From Gammaproteobacteria bacterium (GTDB lineage Bacteria; Pseudomonadota; Gammaproteobacteria; JAQSXL01), in assembly GCA_029256685.1 (NCBI GenBank), contig JAQSXL010000001.1, positions 1 to 40,071 of the forward strand: 40,071 bases of DNA, in the 5' to 3' direction. This document shows positions 1 to 25,323 of the stretch, piece after piece. The notes under the pieces were generated by a model that saw only the letters and a program-made list of their open reading frames with translations, was not told the DNA's origin and made no database searches. The translations under genes and the position numbers were made by a program. Position 1 is the first letter of the stretch, and each line of letters opens with the position of its first letter.

Positions 1-233
1 GGGCTTAACGTTGTAAAGCCATTATCCGTATCGGCCAAGGCCTTAGCTTTTAGACTCTCCTTACCAAACCGCTGGTTGAACAAGGTCGGCTGTTTAGCTT
101 TCCGGTTGACTACTTGGCTTGATTGAGCCTGTGCTTCTCTGCGGGTCATGGTAGACTCGGGTTGATGACGCAAAGTATGATAGGCATTTAATTGCTCAAC
201 GATAGGCTGAGACAGTATCGACCTGACAACGTA
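1..233 (-). pseudogene. Orphan (start-less) YD/Rhs toxin C-terminal cassette. Only the 5' part is in the window; it continues past the left edge.
   Basis: The minus-strand frame reads ...PIVEQLNAYHTLRHQPESTMTRREAQAQSSQVVNRKAKQPTLFNQRFGKESLKAKALADTDNGF... This is nearly identical to residues ~3907-3971 of the 4281-aa protein. An in-frame TAG (complement of 234-236) lies directly upstream, and no start codon precedes the homology. Confidence 0.6.
5..207. repeat. Copy A of a ~200-bp direct repeat (homology handle) shared with 2862-3064
   Basis: Manual alignment at a constant offset of 2857 nt gave about 10 mismatches and no indels over ~200 positions. Similarity ends abruptly at 208/3065. Confidence 0.9.
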
Positions 234-267
234 CTAATATCGGGCCAAGTTTTTAATCAAACCTATG

Positions 268-708
268 CTAATGAATTCCATAATAGTTAACTATCCAGAG
301 AAGTAATCCGCCACATGTGATAAAAAGTAGATAACTAATCATTACTGCAAAACTCCACATGATTTCTTTCCTAGTAAACAGCTCATAGGGATAATTAATT
401 TTTTGTAAAGCATATGCCTTAGGGTATATCTTGACTGTATTTGGATCTTTTCCAAACCATTTAATTAGACATTTTGCAAAGATATAAAAAGCAATTTCTG
501 TTTGGCGCATAAAATATTTACCACGAAACATCATGCGGTATTGAATCATATAATAACCTAGTTTCTGGCCAATCTTTCTCTCTATTTCTGGCACTATGAT
601 GCGATTAAATACCAGAGGAAAAAGGGTTACAATTATTAACATGCTTATAGTTCCTATGAAGCCAGTCACATGATATATAACCATTACAGTTAAATTTAAC
701 TTGTCCAT
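268..708 (-). CDS. Small polytopic membrane protein (about 4 hydrophobic helices); putative immunity partner of the upstream 133-aa protein
   Basis: 146-aa ORF. AAGGA lies 7 nt before the ATG, and the ORF starts 16 nt after the stop of the 133-aa ORF. Hydrophobic stretches include VMVIYHVTGFIGTISMLIIVTLFPLVF and WSFAVMISYLLFITCGGLLLWIV. The DNA is very AT-rich. Confidence 0.6.
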   Translation of the reverse strand: MDKLNLTVMVIYHVTGFIGTISMLIIVTLFPLVFNRIIVPEIERKIGQKLGYYMIQYRMMFRGKYFMRQTEIAFYIFAKCLIKWFGKDPNTVKIYPKAYALQKINYPYELFTRKEIMWSFAVMISYLLFITCGGLLLWIVNYYGIH

Positions 709-724
709 GGAATATCCTTAAAAA

Positions 725-1126
725 TTAATACTTATTACGTATTTCATGCTCAAATTTCTCAAAGCTATCTATAGCTTCTTTAGTTTCAACATACATAACG
801 TGACCAAATTTTTTGCCAAAGGCAGCCCCTGCCGAAGTTAAAGCGACAACTGTCGCAATAGCCACAGGCGTAAGTATTCCTGCTGAAATGCCTTCTTCGC
901 CAAAAGCAACAAGTCCACCGATGACTCCTCCCGCAACACCACCCACAATTCTACCTGTTTCCTCAAAGGCCGTTTGCAGTTTTGTACCCGATTCGGCTTG
1001 AAGAACATTGATGCCACCAAGTGCTATCTCTGCCGGCAATACAAGCCTACTGGCGCCCTCGATAAACTCTGCACCCTTCGCATATAGCCCATACTTTGCC
1101 GCTAATCCCGAGTACCTTTGATACAT
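725..1126 (-). CDS. Small Gly/Ala-rich glycine-zipper protein; possible membrane-active orphan toxin module
   Basis: 133-aa ORF with ETGRIVGGVAGGVIGGLVAFGEEGISAGILTPVAIATVVALTSAGAAFG. It weakly resembles the start of the main toxin's variable region (YAKGAEFIEGA versus FAGAEVIGGV; E-TG motif). It is followed by a coupled membrane-protein gene. Confidence 0.5.
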   Translation of the reverse strand: MYQRYSGLAAKYGLYAKGAEFIEGASRLVLPAEIALGGINVLQAESGTKLQTAFEETGRIVGGVAGGVIGGLVAFGEEGISAGILTPVAIATVVALTSAGAAFGKKFGHVMYVETKEAIDSFEKFEHEIRNKY

Positions 1127-1390
1127 TTCACCAGACTTTGCTACATCACTGATAATCTATAACTCGCACAGCACCATTTCGAGCATAAACACTATAGCGA
1201 TTATACTTCTCAATCACACTCAATCGTTCTATTCGCTGGCCAAAGTGTTCCAAAGTAGCTCCAATCGTCGTATTAGGGTCTTGAACTTCTGCAATAAAAG
1301 TATCCTTTAAGCGTGTTACTAAATTAAAAGACTATAAGGACCTGTGCCTAACGCATACTTAAAGCCAAATTAGATAATTTCTTACAAAAC

Positions 1391-1927
1391 TTAGCTATCA
1401 ATAAGTTGTATTAGTAATTCACTATCAATTTTATGTTCGTTTACAGGAATGAGATTAATTATCAAATTTGTTAATTTACTAAATATCAGTTCATTAGATG
1501 AAATCTCCGAAGAAGCACCGTAGCAAAAATTCAAGTTACCACTAAGCTTCAACTGACTATTTTTAGAAATAGATTCAATCTTATCGAAAATCGCTTTACA
1601 ATATTTCTCAGAAACGGATAAATATACAGGCTCTATTTTCTCAATTAGCGATTTCTTAAAACTATTTGCATTAAAATTACTGCCACATAAAACACTTACT
1701 TCAAGATTATTTGTTGGCATTGGTATATAATTAGCACCTAGTAATCCATATATATTTCTTCCACCACGTGGAATTAAGAGTTCTATAATTACTGTTTTAT
1801 TACAAAAATCATTATTTGAATGGCTAGAGTACTTAGCAATCTGTGGCTTATTACTTAATAATAAATCTTGATTAGGTTGTAACCATAATCTTATATTTCT
1901 TAAATAATCTAACTCAAATTCTAACAT
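1391..1927 (-). CDS. Putative cognate immunity protein of the YD/Rhs C-terminal toxin
   Basis: 178-aa ORF. The toxin stop is followed by GGAG and an ATG 11 nt later (TAAGGAGAAATAATATG). The DNA is extremely AT-rich (13 G+C in 1441-1500). I recognise no motif in it. Confidence 0.65.
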   Translation of the reverse strand: MLEFELDYLRNIRLWLQPNQDLLLSNKPQIAKYSSHSNNDFCNKTVIIELLIPRGGRNIYGLLGANYIPMPTNNLEVSVLCGSNFNANSFKKSLIEKIEPVYLSVSEKYCKAIFDKIESISKNSQLKLSGNLNFCYGASSEISSNELIFSKLTNLIINLIPVNEHKIDSELLIQLIDS

Positions 1928-1938
1928 ATTATTTCTCC

Positions 1939-4900
1939 TTAAAGTTCTGGGGTTATATGATGTAATTTAGGTTGATAGTTGCTCCAGAAATCAATCCATT
2001 TATTGTTGAAGGAGCCTGGCTCTATCGCATTCACCGCATTGATAACATCTGGGTGATAAACACTAAACGGTGAAACTTGATATTTACTTAGTGCAAACTG
2101 ATGAGCTTCAATATAGTTCATCCCTTTTGACATTTTAGTTGCCTCTGTAACCTCATGTATATAAAAACTAGCATCTGCACCAGTCACGGTCTTCCCAGAT
2201 CGTAATGCTTCATTTAGCCTTAATAACATTAATTCATTCTCTTTTACTGGACCAAATTTAGATAAGTGTTGAGTTACGAGGTCTAAGCCTTTTTGTGATA
2301 TACGAACAGCACTATTGGTAAGCTTACCTAACCCTTCGCCATCTGAGATACTTGTACTTAAATAGGCACCTGTTTTTTCTATACTGCTAAACAACCGAGG
2401 CCCAACCAATTTTATACCACCGGCTAAGCCACCGGGCATTACTAAATCAAACCCCACCTCCATAGCAGTTGTGCCAATATTATCCAGACCAAACTCATGC
2501 GCCGCTCGACCAAACGCAGTGGTCTCAGCTTCACCTGTCCATAAACATTTTAAGCCCGTTTCTATATGGTCAAGCCCTCTCAGCGCTGTGACGCCCCCCA
2601 CAGCAAGCCCTACACCAGTTTCAATCGTCAATATACCAAAACCAACTCCAGCAGCTGTTTGTACAACTCCGCCTATGACTTCAGCGCCTGCAAATATCCG
2701 ATTAGTAAAAGCTGCCCTTTTATTCGATGGTGACAAATCACTATTTTGTGAAGTTGCATAGATAGATTTATTTGATGCTGTCCAGATCATCTTACCTTCA
2801 TCTAGCATAGCCATTACATCATCGGACCTAATGGGTGTTAACAAACTCTCCTCATCAGGACTCTGCGTTATAAAGCCGTTATCCGTATCGGCCAACGCCT
2901 TAGCTTTTAGACTCTCCTTACTAAACCGCTGATTGAATAAAGTCGGCTGTTTAGCTTTCCGGTTGACTACTTGGCTTGATTGAGCCTGTGCTTCTCTGCG
3001 GGTCATGGTAGACTCGGGTTGGCGACGCAAAGTATGATAGGCATTTAATTGCTCAACAATAGGCGTTGCTAGCTTAATTCCTATCGCAGTACCTAGCGCT
3101 TGGGCGGCTATCAACTCTATATTAGGCTCGTGCTGTTGCATCACGCTGTCTACCATGCCTTGCACCAAGGGCTGGCTAATCGGCTGAGCGAGTTTATTCG
3201 TGATATTCAGCTCGTAGTTTAATATCTGGCCGCTTATCGCCGCCAAGACTTCACCAAAGTCAAAGTGCGGACTTAAACCCAGCGCTAGCTTGCTCAGCTG
3301 CTCCAGTATTACCACCTTGCCTACGCGGGATAGCTTCTCTGCAAGCTCAAGCCGCTCTCCCAGCTTAAGTTTATCTAAGCCTTGGACATCTAGCCCCGAG
3401 TTTAAACCGGCACTGGCCGCGCCCATGGCCATGTTGGAAAACGAAAACTGGTGTTGAGCCCCTAACCCTATCAACACCCCTTGGCTGGCCGCACTGGCCA
3501 ACGCACCTAGCGCCGCCGCCCTAAGTGCGTTAGTCATCACCGCTGCACCTTGTACCTGTGCCAACGCCGGCACCAAGACTGGCATGAAGTAGGCTATCAC
3601 TACCGTTATCACCACCTGAATCACAATCCCTAAAAAGCTGCTCCAAAAACCACCGTCAGGCTGGGGTGTTTCCAAGTGTGGATACAGATGTTCCAAAATG
3701 GTATTTAAAAATACCTGGTAGGCTATGTGATTACCCGCCCCATTGTGCATGGGGATTAAGGGCGGTACATTTAAAGCCAACCCCGGTGTCGGGGTCTCAT
3801 CCGCCCGCAAGCCATTGGCTTCTGCCAATAAACTCGCATAGCTATTGTCTCCATACACCTGCTGCGCTATACCACTAAAACTATCTCCTTCCATCACCAC
3901 ATAGCGCGTGACTCCCGTCCCTGTTCCAAGCTCGCTCACCCGCTGAATAAAATCCACCAGCTTCAATCGTCCCATCGCTTGCGGCAGTAAGTCTTTCGCC
4001 TTATAGTGCAAGACGGGTAAATGCCGTTGGTTATGAAGATACTGTTTAGGCTGAGGCATGTGCACCTCACTGGCTCGCCGCTTAGCTAATCTTATCAAAT
4101 CGGCCCATACTCGGTAACTGTTGCCATCCCACGGGTCCTTAGTGATTTCATAAGCGCCTATAGGCGCGCCATTCACTGTATAAAAATAATGGTGTTCCTT
4201 GATCCGGGGCGTCTCTTGCCAAATATTGTTGGTTTTGTTCGGCTGTAATATCTGCTTCTTAAATACCAAACCGTCCGAAGCCGCTTGGTATAGCACAACC
4301 TCTTGCGTTTTATTATCCTCAGCATAAACCCCAAGATTCGCATTTTGTGCCCCATTTGCATCATACAGCAATTGTGCTTGGTTATAGGGACTTGAATCAC
4401 CGTCACGTTCACGCCGTCCCCAGGTCTTGGTTAATTGTAGGCTGTCAAAACGAGCGTACTCATTATTCAGATAATCCCAAAAATCCACATCCTTTGTAAA
4501 ATAGTAGCTTACCTGTTGCTGCGGCTGACCGCTCGCCGTGAAGATCTTAAATACGCTAGAGCTTACCTTATTTTTATGATAGCCAAAAAAGCTATCCTCC
4601 CCCTCTTCTTGGTAATCATCAACTAGCCATTGGTTGGCGTTATAAACTAGCTTATGCTCCTTAATGCTTGCCACTTTAAGATAATCCATAACCTTGAGAT
4701 CAACCGCTTTAGAGTAGTAACGCTTTAGCAATCCCGATGAATAATACTCTCTTAAAGTGGTAGTTTGTAAAGGCAAATCAAGCAGAGTCGTGCTTAACTT
4801 ACCCTCATCATCATAGCCTATTAAGGTTTTTTTATAGGTCCAGTCTTTGTCGTATTCCTCTTCGCTAACCCGTACATCCCACTGGTAATTCAGTTTCTTG

Positions 4901-7900
4901 CCTTGGCCATTGGTGATAACGATATTGCCATTTTGCAACACACCGCCATCAATGATGGCACGATTGTTGGCATCGAATCGATTCCAGGTGGATTGAGTCA
5001 TCACCGGCGCTTTATTTTCTCCCGGATAGAGGAAGGCCGATACATGCATGCGATTACCGCACGCATCATACCCCGTAGCCAACAGCATCATGGTGTCTAA
5101 GGTCCACGATTCTCGTCCTAAAGCATCAAGCCGGGTCACGACTCGGCGCAATTGAACCTCACCCTGTTTGACTTCAACGCCTATACGTCGGTTTTCACTG
5201 TCTAAGCTATAGTAGGTACTTTTACCCTGTACCCTATCATGTTCTTCGTACAATCGACCCGCACGGTATACCCGTTCTATGACTTGATTGGGCGTTGGCA
5301 GTGAGACGGGTTGATAGCAGTCTGCCTGTATGATAATAGGTTTTCTGTCCCGCTCTCTGATTTCAAAGTCTTTGACCGTTTGCTTAAGTAGCAGATAGGT
5401 GCCGTGCTGAGCATCGCGGGACCCTTGCTTAATCAGCTGATACTTGTAATCGTAAACGTACTGATATATACCGCTCAAACTGCCATGTTCCTGTAGGTTG
5501 CCAAAATAGTCGCGCGTCCAATACTGGCTGCCATCATTGTTTATTTGCCGCACCAACTGGTGGTTGCGATCGTGCTCCGTTACGGTTACATCTCCCTCCG
5601 GTAAAATAAGAGCCAGCACATCGTACTTTGGAGTATAGCGATAGCGGGTCTGCTGCAGCTCTGCATTGATATCGGTGATACGCAAATTGCATTCATTAAT
5701 GGTAAAACTATGAATATTGTTTAAGGGCGAGATAAACGCTGTTATGTTATTGGCATTATCAAACGCCTGCCGCCATATTTTTCCGCGAGCATCGGTATAC
5801 CTTGGCACCCGGCCTAAAGCATCAAATATCTGCTTACGTTTTATAGTACCGTCCGCTAACACATGAGTTAACTGTTGACCAGCCCTATCCACAAAGTAGG
5901 CCTGGGTATGACCACGCGGATCAACCTCGGCTATCAACATACCTCTAAGGTTATAACCACTGCGAGTAGTCGGCGATTGATGGCTGAGCGTACCATTTTC
6001 GGCTACAACCTCGACCTCGGACTGAACCCGCTTTATGACCTGATTGAAGACATTGAAACGCTGCTGGGTTTGATGGCCTAGGCTATCGGTTTCCGTCGTC
6101 ACGTTGTCCCAACTGTCGTATTCAAATTGGTGCATGGGTTGAATCAGCTTGGATTTAGGCTCAGAAAGATCATGGCTTGCTAAGACATAGCCATTTAACT
6201 CAAGCTTAAATACGCCATTCGTCTCGCCTAGCTTAAACGGGTAACTCCCTAACGGCAGATCGCTGACATCCAAGACAACGCCTTGTTGAGTGACACCCAT
6301 AGCCTGCAGGTTTTTCCAGCATGCCAGCCTATCGTATGAGGTATCCCAAAATTGCAGCGTGGGTTGAGCGGTTTGTCCCAGGATGGGCGTAATATAGCTT
6401 ACAATTCTATCGGGAAAGGGAATAACGGTTATTAGATTTTCTGTAGTAGGCACTTCTTGAGAGTTGAGCGTAGGCATAGTCTGATAAAGTGGCAAGCTAT
6501 CTTGCTCATTGAGTAACAATGCAACGGAAATCGACTTGACTTGGTTAAGCTTATGGGCAAATTCGCTGTTACAGATAAGCTCCTTCCCTTTATCATCTTT
6601 ATAATGACCCTTATCCGTGCCCGGCCGAATGATATCCTCCTGAATGTACTCTTGCTCGTCGTCGGCGGTGTATACACAAGTTAAGGCGATAGGCAAGGTT
6701 TGGTAGCACTCGGGCACAGACCAGATCACCTGGACGTGATTGTCTAAGGCTAACATTTGGATAGAGGCTTGGATTTCTCGCGCCAAAGGATTTATCGAAG
6801 GCGTAGCGGTATAAATGGTAAAGGGTAAACTCAGCTCATCAACCGCATCACGCTTCGCATTTTCTGTAAGGCTTTGCCGCATCGAGACCGGATTTTTCTT
6901 AAGTGTGCCAATAGGTATAACCCGATACTCGCCCGAGGCTTGATTAGCAAGGTTGATATACCACTCGTTGGTTTGGGGATCTTGCTTGACTGCCACCTCA
7001 TCCAACTTTTTGCCATCTTGCCATAATTCAACCGCCTTAAGTTGCTCGGTATTGCCGCTGAAATAGACCAGGTGATCATGCCTCACTTCGGTAACCAAAT
7101 GTTGACTACGCTTGGTATGAAAGGTATTGATTTGGGTAAAACCTTGCGTGCGGTATTGCGGTAATGTGTCCAATTGGCCGGTAATGGGATTGCGTAAATA
7201 ATAGTTGATTTCATACTCGTATACGTCGCAGCTCAATTCGCTAACATCCACTCCACAGCGATAAGCACTGCGTTTGATGACTAAATCGGTTTTAAGTCCG
7301 GGACTGCCTTTGGGCCACAGACTCATTGTTGCAGCCTCGACGTTGGTTTCCTGCGGCTGCGTCCAGCTCAGCGTTAGCTTACCAAGCTCAGGATAAGCCT
7401 TACCAAACAGGATGGTCAGTGGAATGTTAAGCGGATGCGCCGGATCGGTTTCCCAATAGGCTGGCGTGCCCTGCGCGATGACGCGGCCCGCATTATCCCG
7501 CCAAGTGCTATGCTTTTCTAATTTTTCAACCGGCCAGCTCAATAGGCCTGCTTGTTGGTCGTAGCTTACCTTTGCTATATTCTCGGTCGCTGAGCGCAAT
7601 TCAGCGGTTTTCAGGCCTCGCAGATCATAGAGCTGGATTAGGTGTACACCCTTGCTAAGATTCTGGGCCCAACTACGATTTTGCACGTCACGGTGTTGAT
7701 AAGCCGGCCAGACATTATTGCCGGGTCCTTCCGCCACCACATTGCCGAAAATGTCGTACGCCTGCTGTGTGATTTCATAGCTGTTGTTATCACGCAACAC
7801 CTCGGTATAGTAAACTCGGTTACAGGCATCACGGCGCAGGCGCTTTTCATCGATGTGAGTGCTAAGCTTATACTCCGTGCGGCTAAGTTGATCCCAATGC

Positions 7901-10900
7901 GTGTATAGATACCAGTTGCGCGCCGGCTCTCGCCTGGGATCGTAGGTGTAGCCGTGCAGGTTGCCTCTCGCATCTTGCTGATACTGGGCTAACCCTCGAT
8001 TATCCATCAGACTCAGCTCAGTTTGATCCTGAGCCGTACTGGCAATAGGAGTAGGCAGCTGATCAACCGTAGCCTTTGCCGTCCCTTGGGCAAAACGGGT
8101 GACCATCACTACTTGACCATGGGCATTCACACCCCAATAGCTTAAAGGGATGATGGTAATAGGTTTATCGGCCTCGTCCCTTGACTCGCGGGCCACGCCT
8201 GTCTCGCCTATCTTGTGACCCTGAGCATTATAATACCGATATTCGGCGCTTTCGTCCGGATAGGTGATACTAATCAGCTGACGGTGAGCATTATAGCTAA
8301 ACGAAGTAGTAAGATTTAGCTTGGGTTTATCATGCATGCTGGGGATATTATTCGAGTCCAGGATCAGCTCCTGGACCACAATGCCTACCTTAATTTCAGC
8401 GATCTTGTCGCCTAGATTATTATAATCGAATTCAGAGACACGGTCTTCGTCAGAAATTTCAACGGCAGCTTCTAAGGCCGCTAAACTCATGCCGGGCAAA
8501 GGTGGCTTAGCCAGCGACCTGGCGAACTCTATTCGTTTGATCGCCTTGGCAAACGCATTGCGATAGTATCGTTCGACTATAAAATCAGGGTTAACCTTAG
8601 CCAGCAGATTACCCTGCTTATCACGCCAATAGAGGGTTTGAGCCCAGCGGTCGTGTTTAGGACTCAGCAGTTCCTCTTCTAACACGCGCTCGTTAAAAGC
8701 ATTATAGTCATAGCGGGTAATGGAATGCGCCATGCCGTATTCTTCTTGCTTACCCGGCAGATAGTAAAACACCTGTGGTTTTTCTATGCGTTTGAGATTG
8801 CTGACCCTATCAAACGCATAATTAACTGTTTGGTCATTAGCCGAGGGTTTTACCTGCTGCTCCATAACGGCCAAGGGAATACCCGACATTGTGTAGGGAG
8901 CCAAGTCTATGGCTAGGGGTAGAGAATAGCGGGTGACCTGGGTTTTATTGCCAAAGCTATTATAGCTATTTTGGGTAACCGCTTTTTCAGCGTTGATTAG
9001 ATAAACAGGGCGGCTTGCCGCATCATAGACCGTGAACGACCAACATCCGGCCTCATCGCAGTTTGCCACTTCCAGCCCTTTACCATTGTATACCTTTTGA
9101 GTGGTTAAAATCATTCGCCGCTCTGGCCTTTGGCTAAAACTAGCCGCTTGCTCTGGGTCATCGACGGCAATGTCCTCTATTCGGGTATCACTCAGTTGAT
9201 GGGAGGCGTTATAGTGCAACGTCATCCGACGCGCTTCCTGGGTATTAGCCGCTTTGGTAATGCAAATGACATTGCCTACCTTATCGTAATCCTTATGCGT
9301 CTCTATGGCCAAATTGGTTTGTTGATGGCTAAGCTTGTCGTTCTGCCATTCAACAATAGTCACCGGTATGGCTGGAGCAATCTCCTTTTGTATACGTTGC
9401 GCTCTATCTAACTGATAGAACCAAGCTTGCAGCATGCGATCGGTGTGCTGAATAATATTGTTCAAGGCATCGCGCTGGTAATGGTCTTGCTTTTGCTCGG
9501 CATCTATCTCAGATTCGATTCTATCGGCGGCATCGTAAACCGTTTTGTCTATCTGTGCATTATCCTGGGTCGGGGTTAAATCTTGCAGCAGCTCTACCAA
9601 GGCCGAGTAATCGCTGGGTACAGAGATAGGCTGTTTAAAACGGCTGGTTTGGTAAAGCTTGTTATTTTCGTCGTGATCATACTTCGTCACGGCACCGAGT
9701 GGATCAACCTCAAACTGCAAGCGTCCTGCCGAATCATAAACGTGGTAATGAGTTCTGTCCTGCAAGACATCACGCTGCAATTTAGCCACAAGTTGTGCGG
9801 GAGTCAACTGCGCTAAAGCCGCTGGCTCGGCAACGGGTATGGCGTAAACGGTTTTAGTGATCAAGCGATTGAGTTTATCAAAGACCTGTTGGGTCACTAC
9901 GCCTGTGGCACTCAAGGTAAAAAGTGCCTGACCCAAGGCGTCCACCACATAGTAATTTATTCGATCCAGGCTGGGGTTAGCCAAGGTTTTTACCCGTTGT
10001 TCCAGGGCGGCGGTGGTTAAACCAGCCAGCTCTTTTGGCTCTAAACCCTGAGCATAATTAAGGATTTGAAGCTTATGTCCAGCCAAATTGTAGCGGGTTT
10101 CTTGCACTACCCCCAGTCCATTGATGCTAAAACGCGCCTGCTGGCGTGCATCATAAAACAGCCAGGTTTGCTGATCCTGGTTGCACGGCTGGATTAACTT
10201 AGCCACCTCGGCTAAATTAGTCTGTTCGCTAAGCTTGCCCAGAGCTATTTTTTGTTCATAGTGCAGGGTAGTTTGCAATAAACCATTGGCGTGGTAACGC
10301 CATTCTTGCACGGCTCCCGTGGGTTTCACACAAAAACGCTTTTGCCCTAGCAAATCATAAAAATAATGGGTTTTTTGCCCATTGGCATCAAGGTGAACCA
10401 CCACATCGTCTGCCTTATTCAACACTTGCTGGGTGGCAATGGCCAAGGCATTAGGGCGGGATGGGGTAACAGGATCAACGGTATCCCCCAGCTTGCGGCC
10501 CCAGGCATCGTATTGCAAGGTTTGATAAAATTGGTCCGGGTTATTAACATCGCCCTTTTGCACCCAGATTACTTGCTTTAGACCATTGTAGCCGCGCGTG
10601 GTCAGCAGGTTTAAACCGGGTTTATTTTCGCTGTCGGGATCAAACGTGCAGCTTAGCTCTAAACCGCGCTTATCGTAGGTTTTTTTGGTATGTACACGCC
10701 GTGGGTTTGTGGTTTCTACCACGTCACCGAAGTTATCGCGGACATAGACAGTACTTAGTTTTAAACCGTTTACGTCATCGATATGCAAGATCTGACGGCC
10801 AAGCACATCGTAACCAAACTCATTGCGCAGCCCCTGCTCGCGCTGTTCAGCCAGATGCCAGCCCATGCGGTTGTATTTATTGGTTGTTTTGTGTCCAAGT

Positions 10901-24512: not shown

Positions 24513-24866
24513 GCAATTTTAGCATTTATCTAGCCAGGATTAATAGTTATTTTTAGCTAAGAGGTAAATAACAGCTCCCCTTAAATTGCTCACCTGCACA
24601 AGCTAAGGCTATAGTATCTGAAAACTTACGCACAGGGCTTTTAAAAACTTCCAGCATTTGGCTACTTCTATTCGATTTTGGATAGACCCAACTGTAAAAT
24701 TATGCACTAGTATTGATTGGGCACTAAGTGAAATACAGCGGGGAGTAGACTCTATTTATCTTTATGTACTTGCAGGCATGAGCCCATTTGAAGTTGAAGC
24801 TTATTTTAAAAAAGCACTTCGTAAACTCAAGATAAAGTTTCCTGTAGAGCTTACCAAAAAGTTAAT

Positions 24867-24990
24867 AACGCGATGCTCAACTTTTTTTCTAAGAAATAGG
24901 TGGTGTTACAGCGCACGCAGTTTACGAGTACGATAGAGTGACTTAAACGACAGGATCCCAGTCCTTGTTAAAAAAGTTGAGCAGCGCGTT
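24867..24990. repeat. 21-bp inverted repeat (20/21 match) separated by an 82-nt spacer
   Basis: AACGCGATGCTCAACTTTTTT (24867-24887) against the reverse complement of 24970-24990 (AACGCGCTGCTCAACTTTTTT). Confidence 0.85.
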
Positions 24991-25323
24991 AATTACTAAA
25001 GTTCATTACCATACATCTTTTCTAACAAGGGGTTAATAGTTTGGCGATTTTTTAGCCTATCTGTTTGTCTATTTGGGGGGGTAACGATAATGATTGATGA
25101 TTCACAAATATCTGCAGACAACTCATCAGAAATAACCGGTTTTTGCTCGTTCATAATGTTGATTTCCTTTTCTAAAGTAAAGCCTTAAATCCTAGTAGTT
25201 TTTTCCTTAAAACTACTCTATACAAAGCATAGACCATCCCATTGAATTCTGCCAGCAGCTACTACGGAAATTTTTGCAAGTACTTGGCTATATTATGCCC
25301 ATCACTAACCTCTTCTCTACAAA

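Follow-up and report, generated by a model that had tools for sequence, protein, structure and literature searches.

Rhs toxins reportedly diversify by C-terminal displacement. In this process, which Jackson et al. 2009 are said to have described, earlier tips are displaced to downstream positions and degenerate, and the immunity genes that belong to them are retained. Bee-gut Rhs arrays are also said to exhibit C-terminal displacement of Rhs toxins.

Experiments in Salmonella document that rhs-main recombines with an rhs orphan through a shared 522-bp stretch (95% identity), and in LT2 this joins the orphan tip onto the delivery part (PMC3967940). Orphan cdiA-CT/cdiI modules have no initiation signals of their own, and the amount of sequence retained before the demarcation motif varies. 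In Y. pestis Microtus, an orphan has been joined to cdiA by a documented deletion (PMC3150448).

The locus described here is located in the window, which is the whole stretch of DNA that was analyzed (40,071 nucleotides). The kind of system is known (orphan modules of the Rhs/CdiA type), and the YD-LysM toxin family is new. The features of the locus are as follows.

1 to 207, minus strand: copy R', the orphan stub, with 69 open codons (the 64-codon linker, then ..TTLS and the beginning of P), truncated where the contig stops.
208 to 267, minus strand: spacer between imm2 and the stub, with an in-frame TAG (234-236); a 29-nt piece (210-238) is also found on contig C146.
268 to 708, minus strand: imm2, intact ORF for a 146-aa membrane protein, the putative immunity to the Gly-zipper toxin.
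725 to 1331, minus strand: dead orphan 1, a Gly-zipper toxin remnant, 5'-truncated, frameshifted and without the linker.
1391 to 1927, minus strand: imm1, putative cognate immunity gene, 178 aa, 11 nt past the toxin stop.
1939 to 14784, minus strand: giant YD-repeat toxin gene, 4281 aa (ORF and translation), with RHS repeats and a LysM domain.
1939 to 2861, minus strand: C-terminal region of the expressed toxin, composed of a short conserved pre-toxin stretch (..SPDEESLLTPIRSDDVM), a Gly-rich module and the terminal toxin domain.
2862 to 3064, minus strand: copy R, the part of the main gene that encodes the linker (residues 3908-3971, PIVEQ...DTDNGF) and four further codons.

The giant toxin possesses RHS/YD shell repeats, a classical Rhs/TcC criterion (RHS_repeat, Pfam E 7.8e-58), and also has a Pfam LysM match. 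RHS repeats in the genome are confined to this gene. The Rhs core-end motif PxxxxDPxGL is not found, with no DPxGL-type motif anywhere in the 4281 aa, and the CdiA-type VENN/DUF638 is represented by neither a VENN-like motif nor a Pfam match in the protein. The terminal toxin domain is located at ~residues 4135-4268. A 306-aa query of the tip matches 553 cluster representatives in all. Among the 150 of these matches that were listed, the proteins range from 84 to 3745 aa, and the toxin domain is at or near the C-terminus in almost all. None of the toxin tips matches a Pfam family, and neither do imm1 and imm2. GC content is 46-50% across the gene body and drops to 26-31% around imm1, imm2 and the toxin 3' end; the CT1 and Gly-zipper coding parts have 37-50%.

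The linker is present twice. Positions 9-207 and 2866-3064 form a gapless alignment of 199 nt with 10 mismatches (95% identity), a perfect run of 80 nt, and a start-to-start spacing of 2857. The first-pass annotation had assigned about 10 mismatches and ~95% identity to the longer range of 5-207 and 2862-3064, which has 13 mismatches in 203 nt (93.6%). Stub-specific variants include those at positions 6-8, 13, 21, 39, 65, 75, 81 and 84. The linker peptide that it quoted is correct; in the 4281-aa protein it spans residues 3908-3971. Similarity between R' and the main gene has a sharp 5' limit at 207/3064, and mismatches increase over the last 14 nt, where the contig ends. Against the 2-Mb genome, the repeat gives a BLAST E-value of 8e-87, and a third copy is absent. 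Self-comparison of the window, which the same annotation had advised, returns the linker copies as the only long direct repeat (the sole one of at least 40 nt in 40 kb, besides a 54-nt tandem repeat elsewhere).

Within the 64 codons, R and R' differ by seven synonymous and two non-synonymous changes (pS 0.167, pN 0.013; binomial P 5.6e-4). As the differences are mostly synonymous (7:2), both copies have evolved as coding sequence.

The stub is on the same strand as the toxin, and the array runs from the main gene through imm1, the frameshifted toxin remnant and the intact imm2 to the stub. The in-frame TAG reported upstream of the stub is present at the complement of 234-236. Because the stub is preceded by this codon and by an unrelated spacer, it is a 5'-truncated orphan. 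The description of the left copy as having no start codon is not strictly correct, as an in-frame ATG (147-149) and TTG (171-173) lie inside the stub, both in common with the main gene. The left copy does run off the window and also off the contig, since the window is the entire contig C16 of a 207-contig MAG. Past the linker, four codons are visible before the contig ends. The divergence noted after DTDNGF can be seen and is based on these four codons, after which both copies read S-P.

Extension to the left was sought in the MAG and in other metagenomes. By BLAST, window 1-300 has no overlap with the 207 contigs of the MAG. The sole exact match to the imm2 protein elsewhere is on a 3066-nt JGI contig (metagenome 3300042922). 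This contig comes from an independent assembly, equals window 1-3066, and has the same left end base. Each of its ends is no more than two or three bases away from the outer edge of a repeat copy. In a cluster look-up, the region is found in no further samples. That the entire linker-toxin-immunity unit was recently duplicated within the genome was considered as the simplest origin of R' and rejected, given the synonymous divergence of 0.17 with strong purifying selection and a JGI contig whose left end has just ~209 nt of the repeat vs the full cassette at its right.

The comparative sample is composed of two related metagenome loci, L004 and L008, which are near-identical strains with different main-gene tips. 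The expressed tip of L004 is a Gly-zipper toxin with a 4-TM immunity protein, the counterpart of the dead fragment and imm2 of the window. The dead fragment consists of two adjoining frames (1146-1331 and 725-1156), which have 68% and 59% identity to this intact tip, and imm2 has 67% identity to the gene immediately 3' of it. Downstream, L004 has a decayed orphan in which a pre-linker and a linker of the window type are followed by the toxin (83% aa) and imm1 (91.6%). The final 8 nt of the window's stub equal the orphan sequence in L004. The two other cassettes of the window have exchanged expressed and orphan positions in L004. The three orphans differ in the length of upstream sequence that they keep.

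Homologues of imm1 are found in L004 (91.6%) and L008 (91%), each after a homologous toxin, and homology to L004 stops ~20 nt past the imm1 stop, near window 1371. The toxin/imm1 cassette has 91-95% nt identity between the window and L004, and the flanking genes have 78-84%. The higher identity of the cassette suggests horizontal exchange. Homologues of the L004 flanking genes are located on contigs C25, C190 and C52, and the order beside the array is not conserved. L004 also has an Imm53 immunity gene (E 1.7e-36).

A metagenome scan with the linker peptide found it in just one other locus, so that the comparison sample is tiny. The host lineage is uncultured; the search covered 60 genomes, whose relationship to it is at class level at best, and the linker is present in 0/60 of these class-level relatives. 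Full-length relatives have ~30% identity over residues 3620-3975 in the C-terminal region searched, and none of them matches the linker peptide. No orphan-sized proteins starting with the linker are found besides the window's own.

The main genes of L004 and L008 have 100% identity over 1.2 kb and 96-98.5% in the 600 nt preceding the junction, past which tips and immunities are unrelated. The junction is sharp and coincides with an (E/D)DV(I/M) site, ~17-20 codons past the basic linker. Identity is 78-88% in the decayed 5' part of the orphan and 98-100% again through most of it, from ~L004 10156. The linker was originally believed to be the switch point. The sole mappable tip swap, L004 vs L008, has its junction 17-20 codons past the linker, which places the linker within the conserved arm and not at the switch point itself. 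From the same comparison, the swap junction of the window is predicted near 2812-2814.

The stub is probably (about 0.7) the head of a third toxin-tip/immunity module in an array that follows a giant polymorphic toxin gene of the YD-LysM type. The orphan-array reading of the first-pass annotation is thereby kept in part. The fragment is 5'-truncated, on the same strand and downstream of immunity genes, and within its visible length the similarity to the full-length gene covers the pre-toxin linker; relatives have cassettes swapped between positions and a swapped tip. The stub's own cassette, on which that reading also relied, would lie beyond the contig end.

New tip/immunity cassettes may have entered the 3' end of the main gene via homologous exchange in the conserved TM-helix/linker region. 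Every entry would have displaced the previous tip downstream, leaving a dead 5'-truncated Gly-zipper remnant and a still-intact immunity gene. Beyond this remnant, an older module would have retained ~200 nt of linker. Recombination between R and R' could delete the intervening 2857 bp, so that the delivery part would continue in frame into the spare tip. Such a simple deletion would lose imm1 and imm2 and should be costly; after local duplication, tip fusion could keep the immunity genes. Another possible use of the stub is as a downstream arm for cassette replacement by incoming DNA. The genome carries recA, and with the 95% identity and the 80-nt perfect run, recombination between R and R' is therefore feasible. 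The sequences show the repeat, the truncation, the anatomy of the array and, in relatives, the swapping of cassettes and tips; we infer the order of events, an intact spare tip, and switching in the genome studied.

No recombinant or hybrid between R and R' is seen in the assembled sequences, and it is quite unlikely that tip switching is ongoing in the sampled natural population. The ends of the JGI contig at both repeat edges, together with the left end base shared by two assemblies, could reflect coexisting haplotypes. These could be deletion recombinants, tandem duplications or excised circles that arise via linker recombination, beyond assembler behavior alone. If switching is ongoing, the locus would permit its direct observation in a lineage that is uncultured and possibly host-associated.

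The stub may instead be inert debris of tip displacement, its downstream toxin decayed or absent and its similarity without a role. The adjacent Gly-zipper remnant is frameshifted, and no recombinant is seen in the assembled sequences. In addition, the positionally equivalent, homologous orphan of L004/L008 is a pseudogene with frameshifts and deletions within the linker, and has no repeat of at least 40 nt in common with the main gene of its own locus. Decay thus does occur among orphans of this family, and not all of them are recombinogenic. The stub itself differs from such debris, as all 69 visible codons are open, the 7:2 synonymous excess (P 5.6e-4) is unexpected for a long-untranslated fragment, and its 95% identity and 80-nt perfect run are far above those of the other orphans. 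An inert relic is unlikely.

A use mainly as right-hand homology arm, through which a cassette from another strain is brought in by double crossover, would make the stub something other than an intragenomic deletion partner. The segment replaced between L004 and L008 extends from the (E/D)DV site at its left to the orphan 5' end at its right, and the toxin/imm1 cassette is more alike between the window and L004 than its flanks. Poole et al. likewise describe cdiA modules conserved between successive VENN sites (PMC3150448). However, the right arm in L004/L008 is a window-type fragment and not a copy of their own linker. Moreover, one sequence can serve both uses, so intragenomic recombination stays compatible with this role, and it is very unlikely that the stub is mainly such an arm.

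It is highly improbable that the stub is a variant main-gene linker of a co-occurring strain, misjoined behind imm2 by assembly. The stub is at a contig end of the MAG, and the JGI contig that equals window 1-3066 ends near the outer edges of both copies, so assemblers break at the linker repeat. Against a misjoin, the junction is identical in both assembled contigs, the stub and main copy differ at 13 positions, and an unrelated 60-nt spacer separates the stub from imm2. Since similarity starts only at 207/3064, no shared k-mer spans the junction to cause a false join. A second YD gene is absent from the genome, and L004 and L008 independently have an immunity gene followed by a window-type orphan.

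Least probable of all is translation of the stub from ATG 147-149 as a toxin-antitoxin-like module with an immunity gene, as proposed for the Salmonella orphan Rhs, with a precedent listed in PMC7043789: the gene caller did start the stub at this internal ATG on the JGI contig, but the ATG is inherited from the main gene, no Shine-Dalgarno-like sequence is seen by eye before the internal starts, and the promoter signal at the stub is not above shuffled expectation.

As the head of a third module, the stub would indicate that cassette swapping of the kind seen in Rhs and CdiA also diversifies giant YD-LysM toxins, in which the Rhs core-end motif is absent. R and R' are a concrete, testable pair of recombination substrates. 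The candidate demarcation site of the family, ..PI(K/R)x(E/D)DV(I/M), ~17-20 residues past the basic linker, helps define the start of the delivered tip. The understanding of polymorphic toxins in general is unchanged.

C-terminal displacement in Rhs toxins matches the frameshifted Gly-zipper remnant and intact imm2 of the window. Unlike the Rhs displacement cases, the host belongs to an uncultured lineage and the toxin scaffold is of a different family.

The locus resembles rhs-main/rhs-orphan of Salmonella Typhimurium LT2 in its order of YD/RHS toxin, immunity gene and 5'-truncated tip fragment, with a shared stretch of ~95% identity that is 522 bp in LT2 and ~200 bp in the window (PMC3967940). 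In contrast to LT2, the shared stretch is not marked by PxxxxDPxGL and is a basic linker located past the LysM domain and helices of membrane type. A PAAR, VgrG or T6SS context is not seen in the window, and recombination, documented in LT2, is a prediction here.

Compared with CdiA, the delivery protein is a YD shell, not of the filamentous hemagglutinin type, and has no VENN/DUF638. The demarcation site in YD-LysM relatives is (E/D)DV(I/M), vs VENN for cdiA. As in cdiA orphans, the three orphans of the YD-LysM loci have variable upstream lengths, and in cdiA-CT/cdiI arrays and YD-LysM loci alike, modules are exchanged between main and orphan positions in related strains (PMC3150448).

Positions 9-207 recur in direct orientation at 2866-3064; the two copies, at a 2857-nt spacing, align along 199 nt without a gap and differ at 10 sites. 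Near-identical, gapless copies had been described in the first-pass annotation and are confirmed; over the range given there for the left copy (5-207, 203 nt), 13 positions differ. A BLAST search of the full 2-Mb genome recovers the repeat at E 8e-87 and no third copy, and there are no further long direct repeats across the 40-kb window. The right copy encodes residues 3908-3971 (PIVEQ...DTDNGF), the linker within the 4281-aa ORF of the giant YD-repeat toxin gene. The left copy, or stub, encodes the same peptide except for two replacements, R to H and S to G, and within its 95% identity keeps a perfect 80-nt run (85-164). Upstream of it are sequence unrelated to the main gene and, as first noted, an in-frame TAG (234-236). 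The stub was also said to have no start codon, but an in-frame ATG (147-149) and TTG (171-173) lie inside it, both being the main gene's own codons. The divergence described after DTDNGF is based on only four codons (FTTLS versus FITQS), after which S-P follows in both copies. The stub does leave the window and, moreover, leaves the assembly, as the window is the entire contig C16.

The locus is composed of the following elements:

1939-14784, minus strand: main gene, a 4281-aa ORF with RHS repeats and a LysM domain
1391-1927, minus strand: imm1, 178 aa, the putative cognate immunity gene of the expressed tip
1146-1331 and 725-1156, minus strand: toxin remnant of the Gly-zipper type, 5'-truncated and split over two frames
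268-708, minus strand: imm2, an intact 146-aa membrane protein, putative Gly-zipper immunity
60 nt, in minus-strand order: spacer between imm2 and the stub
after the spacer, minus strand: stub, the last element

In the gene body GC content is 46-50%; it drops to 26-31% near both immunity genes and the toxin 3' end, and the coding parts of the expressed C-terminal toxin and the Gly-zipper remnant are still at 37-50%. A 29-nt piece of the spacer (210-238), 2 nt from the stub 5' edge and including the TAG, recurs at 28/29 in C146:13851-13879 (L007 2852-2880), close upstream of an MlaA-like lipoprotein gene. The piece may have been captured as filler DNA during formation of the orphan junction, or may be a small element of regulatory or repeat type. 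Elsewhere, a 54-nt unit is present in two tandem copies (85% identical; 32514-32621) inside a 678-aa minus-strand ORF (32147-34183).

Over the 64-codon core, the two copies differ by 7 synonymous and 2 non-synonymous changes (pS 0.167, pN 0.013). Given site numbers of 42 (synonymous) and 150 (non-synonymous), this skew has a binomial P of 5.6e-4, and therefore both copies were translated during most of their divergence. The pattern fits a linker once carried by an expressed gene, whether that of a donor strain or the one at this locus prior to displacement. The same synonymous-skewed divergence disfavours a recent local duplication as the origin of the stub and a long-dead fragment as its nature.

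The expressed tip ends in a toxin domain of ~135 residues. A 306-aa tip query matched 553 protein-cluster representatives, and of the 150 matches listed, which span 84 to 4912 aa, almost all (84 to 3745 aa) carry the domain at the C-terminus or close to it. Such placement is the hallmark of a polymorphic toxin domain. The tip (1939-2859, residues 3976-4281) is bipartite, with a Gly-rich module (~residues 36-170 of the tip) ahead of the ~135-aa terminal domain; the module is also found in a 4912-aa protein with a different end. Neither part has a Pfam family.

The sole related locus with the linker peptide from a metagenome scan is L004, a 48-kb contig. It is a relative because its flanking genes encode proteins 61-87% identical to those on other contigs of this genome. 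Its main YD gene has as its tip an intact counterpart of the Gly-zipper fragment that is broken in the window (59-68% aa), and a homologue of the 146-aa protein (67%) comes directly after. The orphan position begins with a piece of the window-type pre-linker (79-95% aa) and the linker, continues with a toxin that shares 83% identity with the expressed tip of the window, and ends with an immunity gene 91.6% identical to imm1. Thus, each of the two cassettes is expressed in one genome and an orphan in the other. Frameshifts and a 55-nt deletion within the linker render the L004 orphan a pseudogene; the immunity gene that goes with it is intact. In the comparison of window 1371-2720 with L004 10236-11628, the 3' kilobase (distal toxin domain and imm1) is 91-95% identical at the nucleotide level, the proximal toxin part 83-85%, and the flanking housekeeping genes 78-84%. 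Because the 3' kilobase is more similar than these flanking genes, a recent horizontal exchange of the toxin/imm1 cassette is suggested. Farther along L004 (11645-12546), an immunity gene of the Imm53 family (E 1.7e-36) and a fragment of another putative toxin, 202 aa between stops, overlap each other, and a degraded LysM-region fragment comes next (12568-12795); this array therefore has at least three modules.

A second locus of the same lineage as L004, L008, was located in an NCBI assembly via its imm1 homologue. The two main genes are 100% identical over 1.2 kb, then mosaic (46-98%), and 96-98.5% identical in the 600 nt ahead of the tip. Identity stops sharply after ..KPIKPEDVI, beyond which the tips and immunity genes are unrelated. 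It resumes at the orphan 5' end, at 78-88% across the decayed 5' part, and is 98-100% from ~L004 10156 through the remaining orphan and its immunity gene. In this pair, a tip swap in the YD-LysM toxin family can be seen directly. On the window protein the junction maps to DDVM (residues 3988-3991). It lies 17-20 residues past the basic linker, so the linker, first taken as the switch point, is instead part of the conserved arm. The equivalent point on the stub is expected ~45 nt beyond the contig end. Across L004 4042-8505 and L008 1-4430, the YD genes of these two near-identical strains are strongly mosaic, running from 100% for 1.2 kb through blocks of 46-85% to 96-98.5%; recombination tracts thus extend beyond the tip, far into the shell-coding part. 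A ~140-nt palindromic MITE/REP-like element (window 24860-24997; arms GTTAATGCGATGCTCAACTTTTTTT) has a further copy at L008 5575-5715, which falls precisely at the right edge of the swapped segment, with the tip's immunity gene on one side and the orphan on the other. The arms have 17 matches on 12 contigs of the window's genome.

The three window-type orphans keep different lengths of upstream sequence, from ~residue 3803 in L008 and from residue 3908 in the stub, and that of L004 carries an internal deletion. Variable upstream lengths are likewise described for cdiA orphans by Poole et al. (PMC3150448). In the more distant metagenome contig L010, a 1008-codon open frame (551-4128) starts inside YD-shell homology, directly after two small genes. 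The toxin domain at its end shares 58% identity with that of the window, an imm1 homologue (55%) comes next, and the frame is possibly a large orphan with ~650 aa of upstream sequence.

The best account is that tips would be displaced one after another by incoming cassettes, through recombination in the conserved TM-helix/linker region and illegitimate joining downstream. The present cassette meets the Gly-zipper remnant within 1331-1370, ~20 nt after the imm1 stop, and RecA is encoded in the genome. In Salmonella, rhs-main and its orphan share 522 bp at 95% identity, and recombination across this stretch has been observed experimentally, following a locus duplication by which immunity was kept (PMC3967940). 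By analogy, recombination between the two copies here would excise 2857 bp, with an in-frame fusion of the spare tip. A second use, suggested by the L004/L008 pair, is that the stub may serve as the right-hand arm in cassette replacement. No event of either kind was seen in this genome.

That the stub is an inert relic is plausible, given the decay of its counterparts in relatives. An assembly chimera is unlikely. The source MAG consists of 207 contigs (1.99 Mb), and the 3066-nt JGI metagenome contig L001 matches window 1-3066 at every base. It starts at the window's first base and ends 2 bases past the outer edge of the right copy, so the imm2-spacer-stub junction is the same in the two assemblies, each of which breaks at the repeat. 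Moreover, no k-mer is common across the junction, the genome has no second YD gene, and L004 and L008 have the same layout. From usual assembler behaviour, we infer that a repeat of ~209 nt was recognised in the data and that the sequence left of position 1 is not a near-identical copy of that from 2857 downwards. None of the genome's other contigs overlaps the left contig end, and protein look-ups found no other samples with these window proteins. Stand-alone expression of the stub from its internal ATG has no support beyond the codon.

The system works in the manner of the orphan arrays at rhs and cdiA loci. Lacking the DPxGL core-end motif, it is no classical Rhs member, and lacking VENN, it is not CdiA. 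The orphan-array logic itself is well known; what is new is an orphan array in the YD-LysM toxin family, together with a candidate (E/D)DV(I/M) demarcation site.
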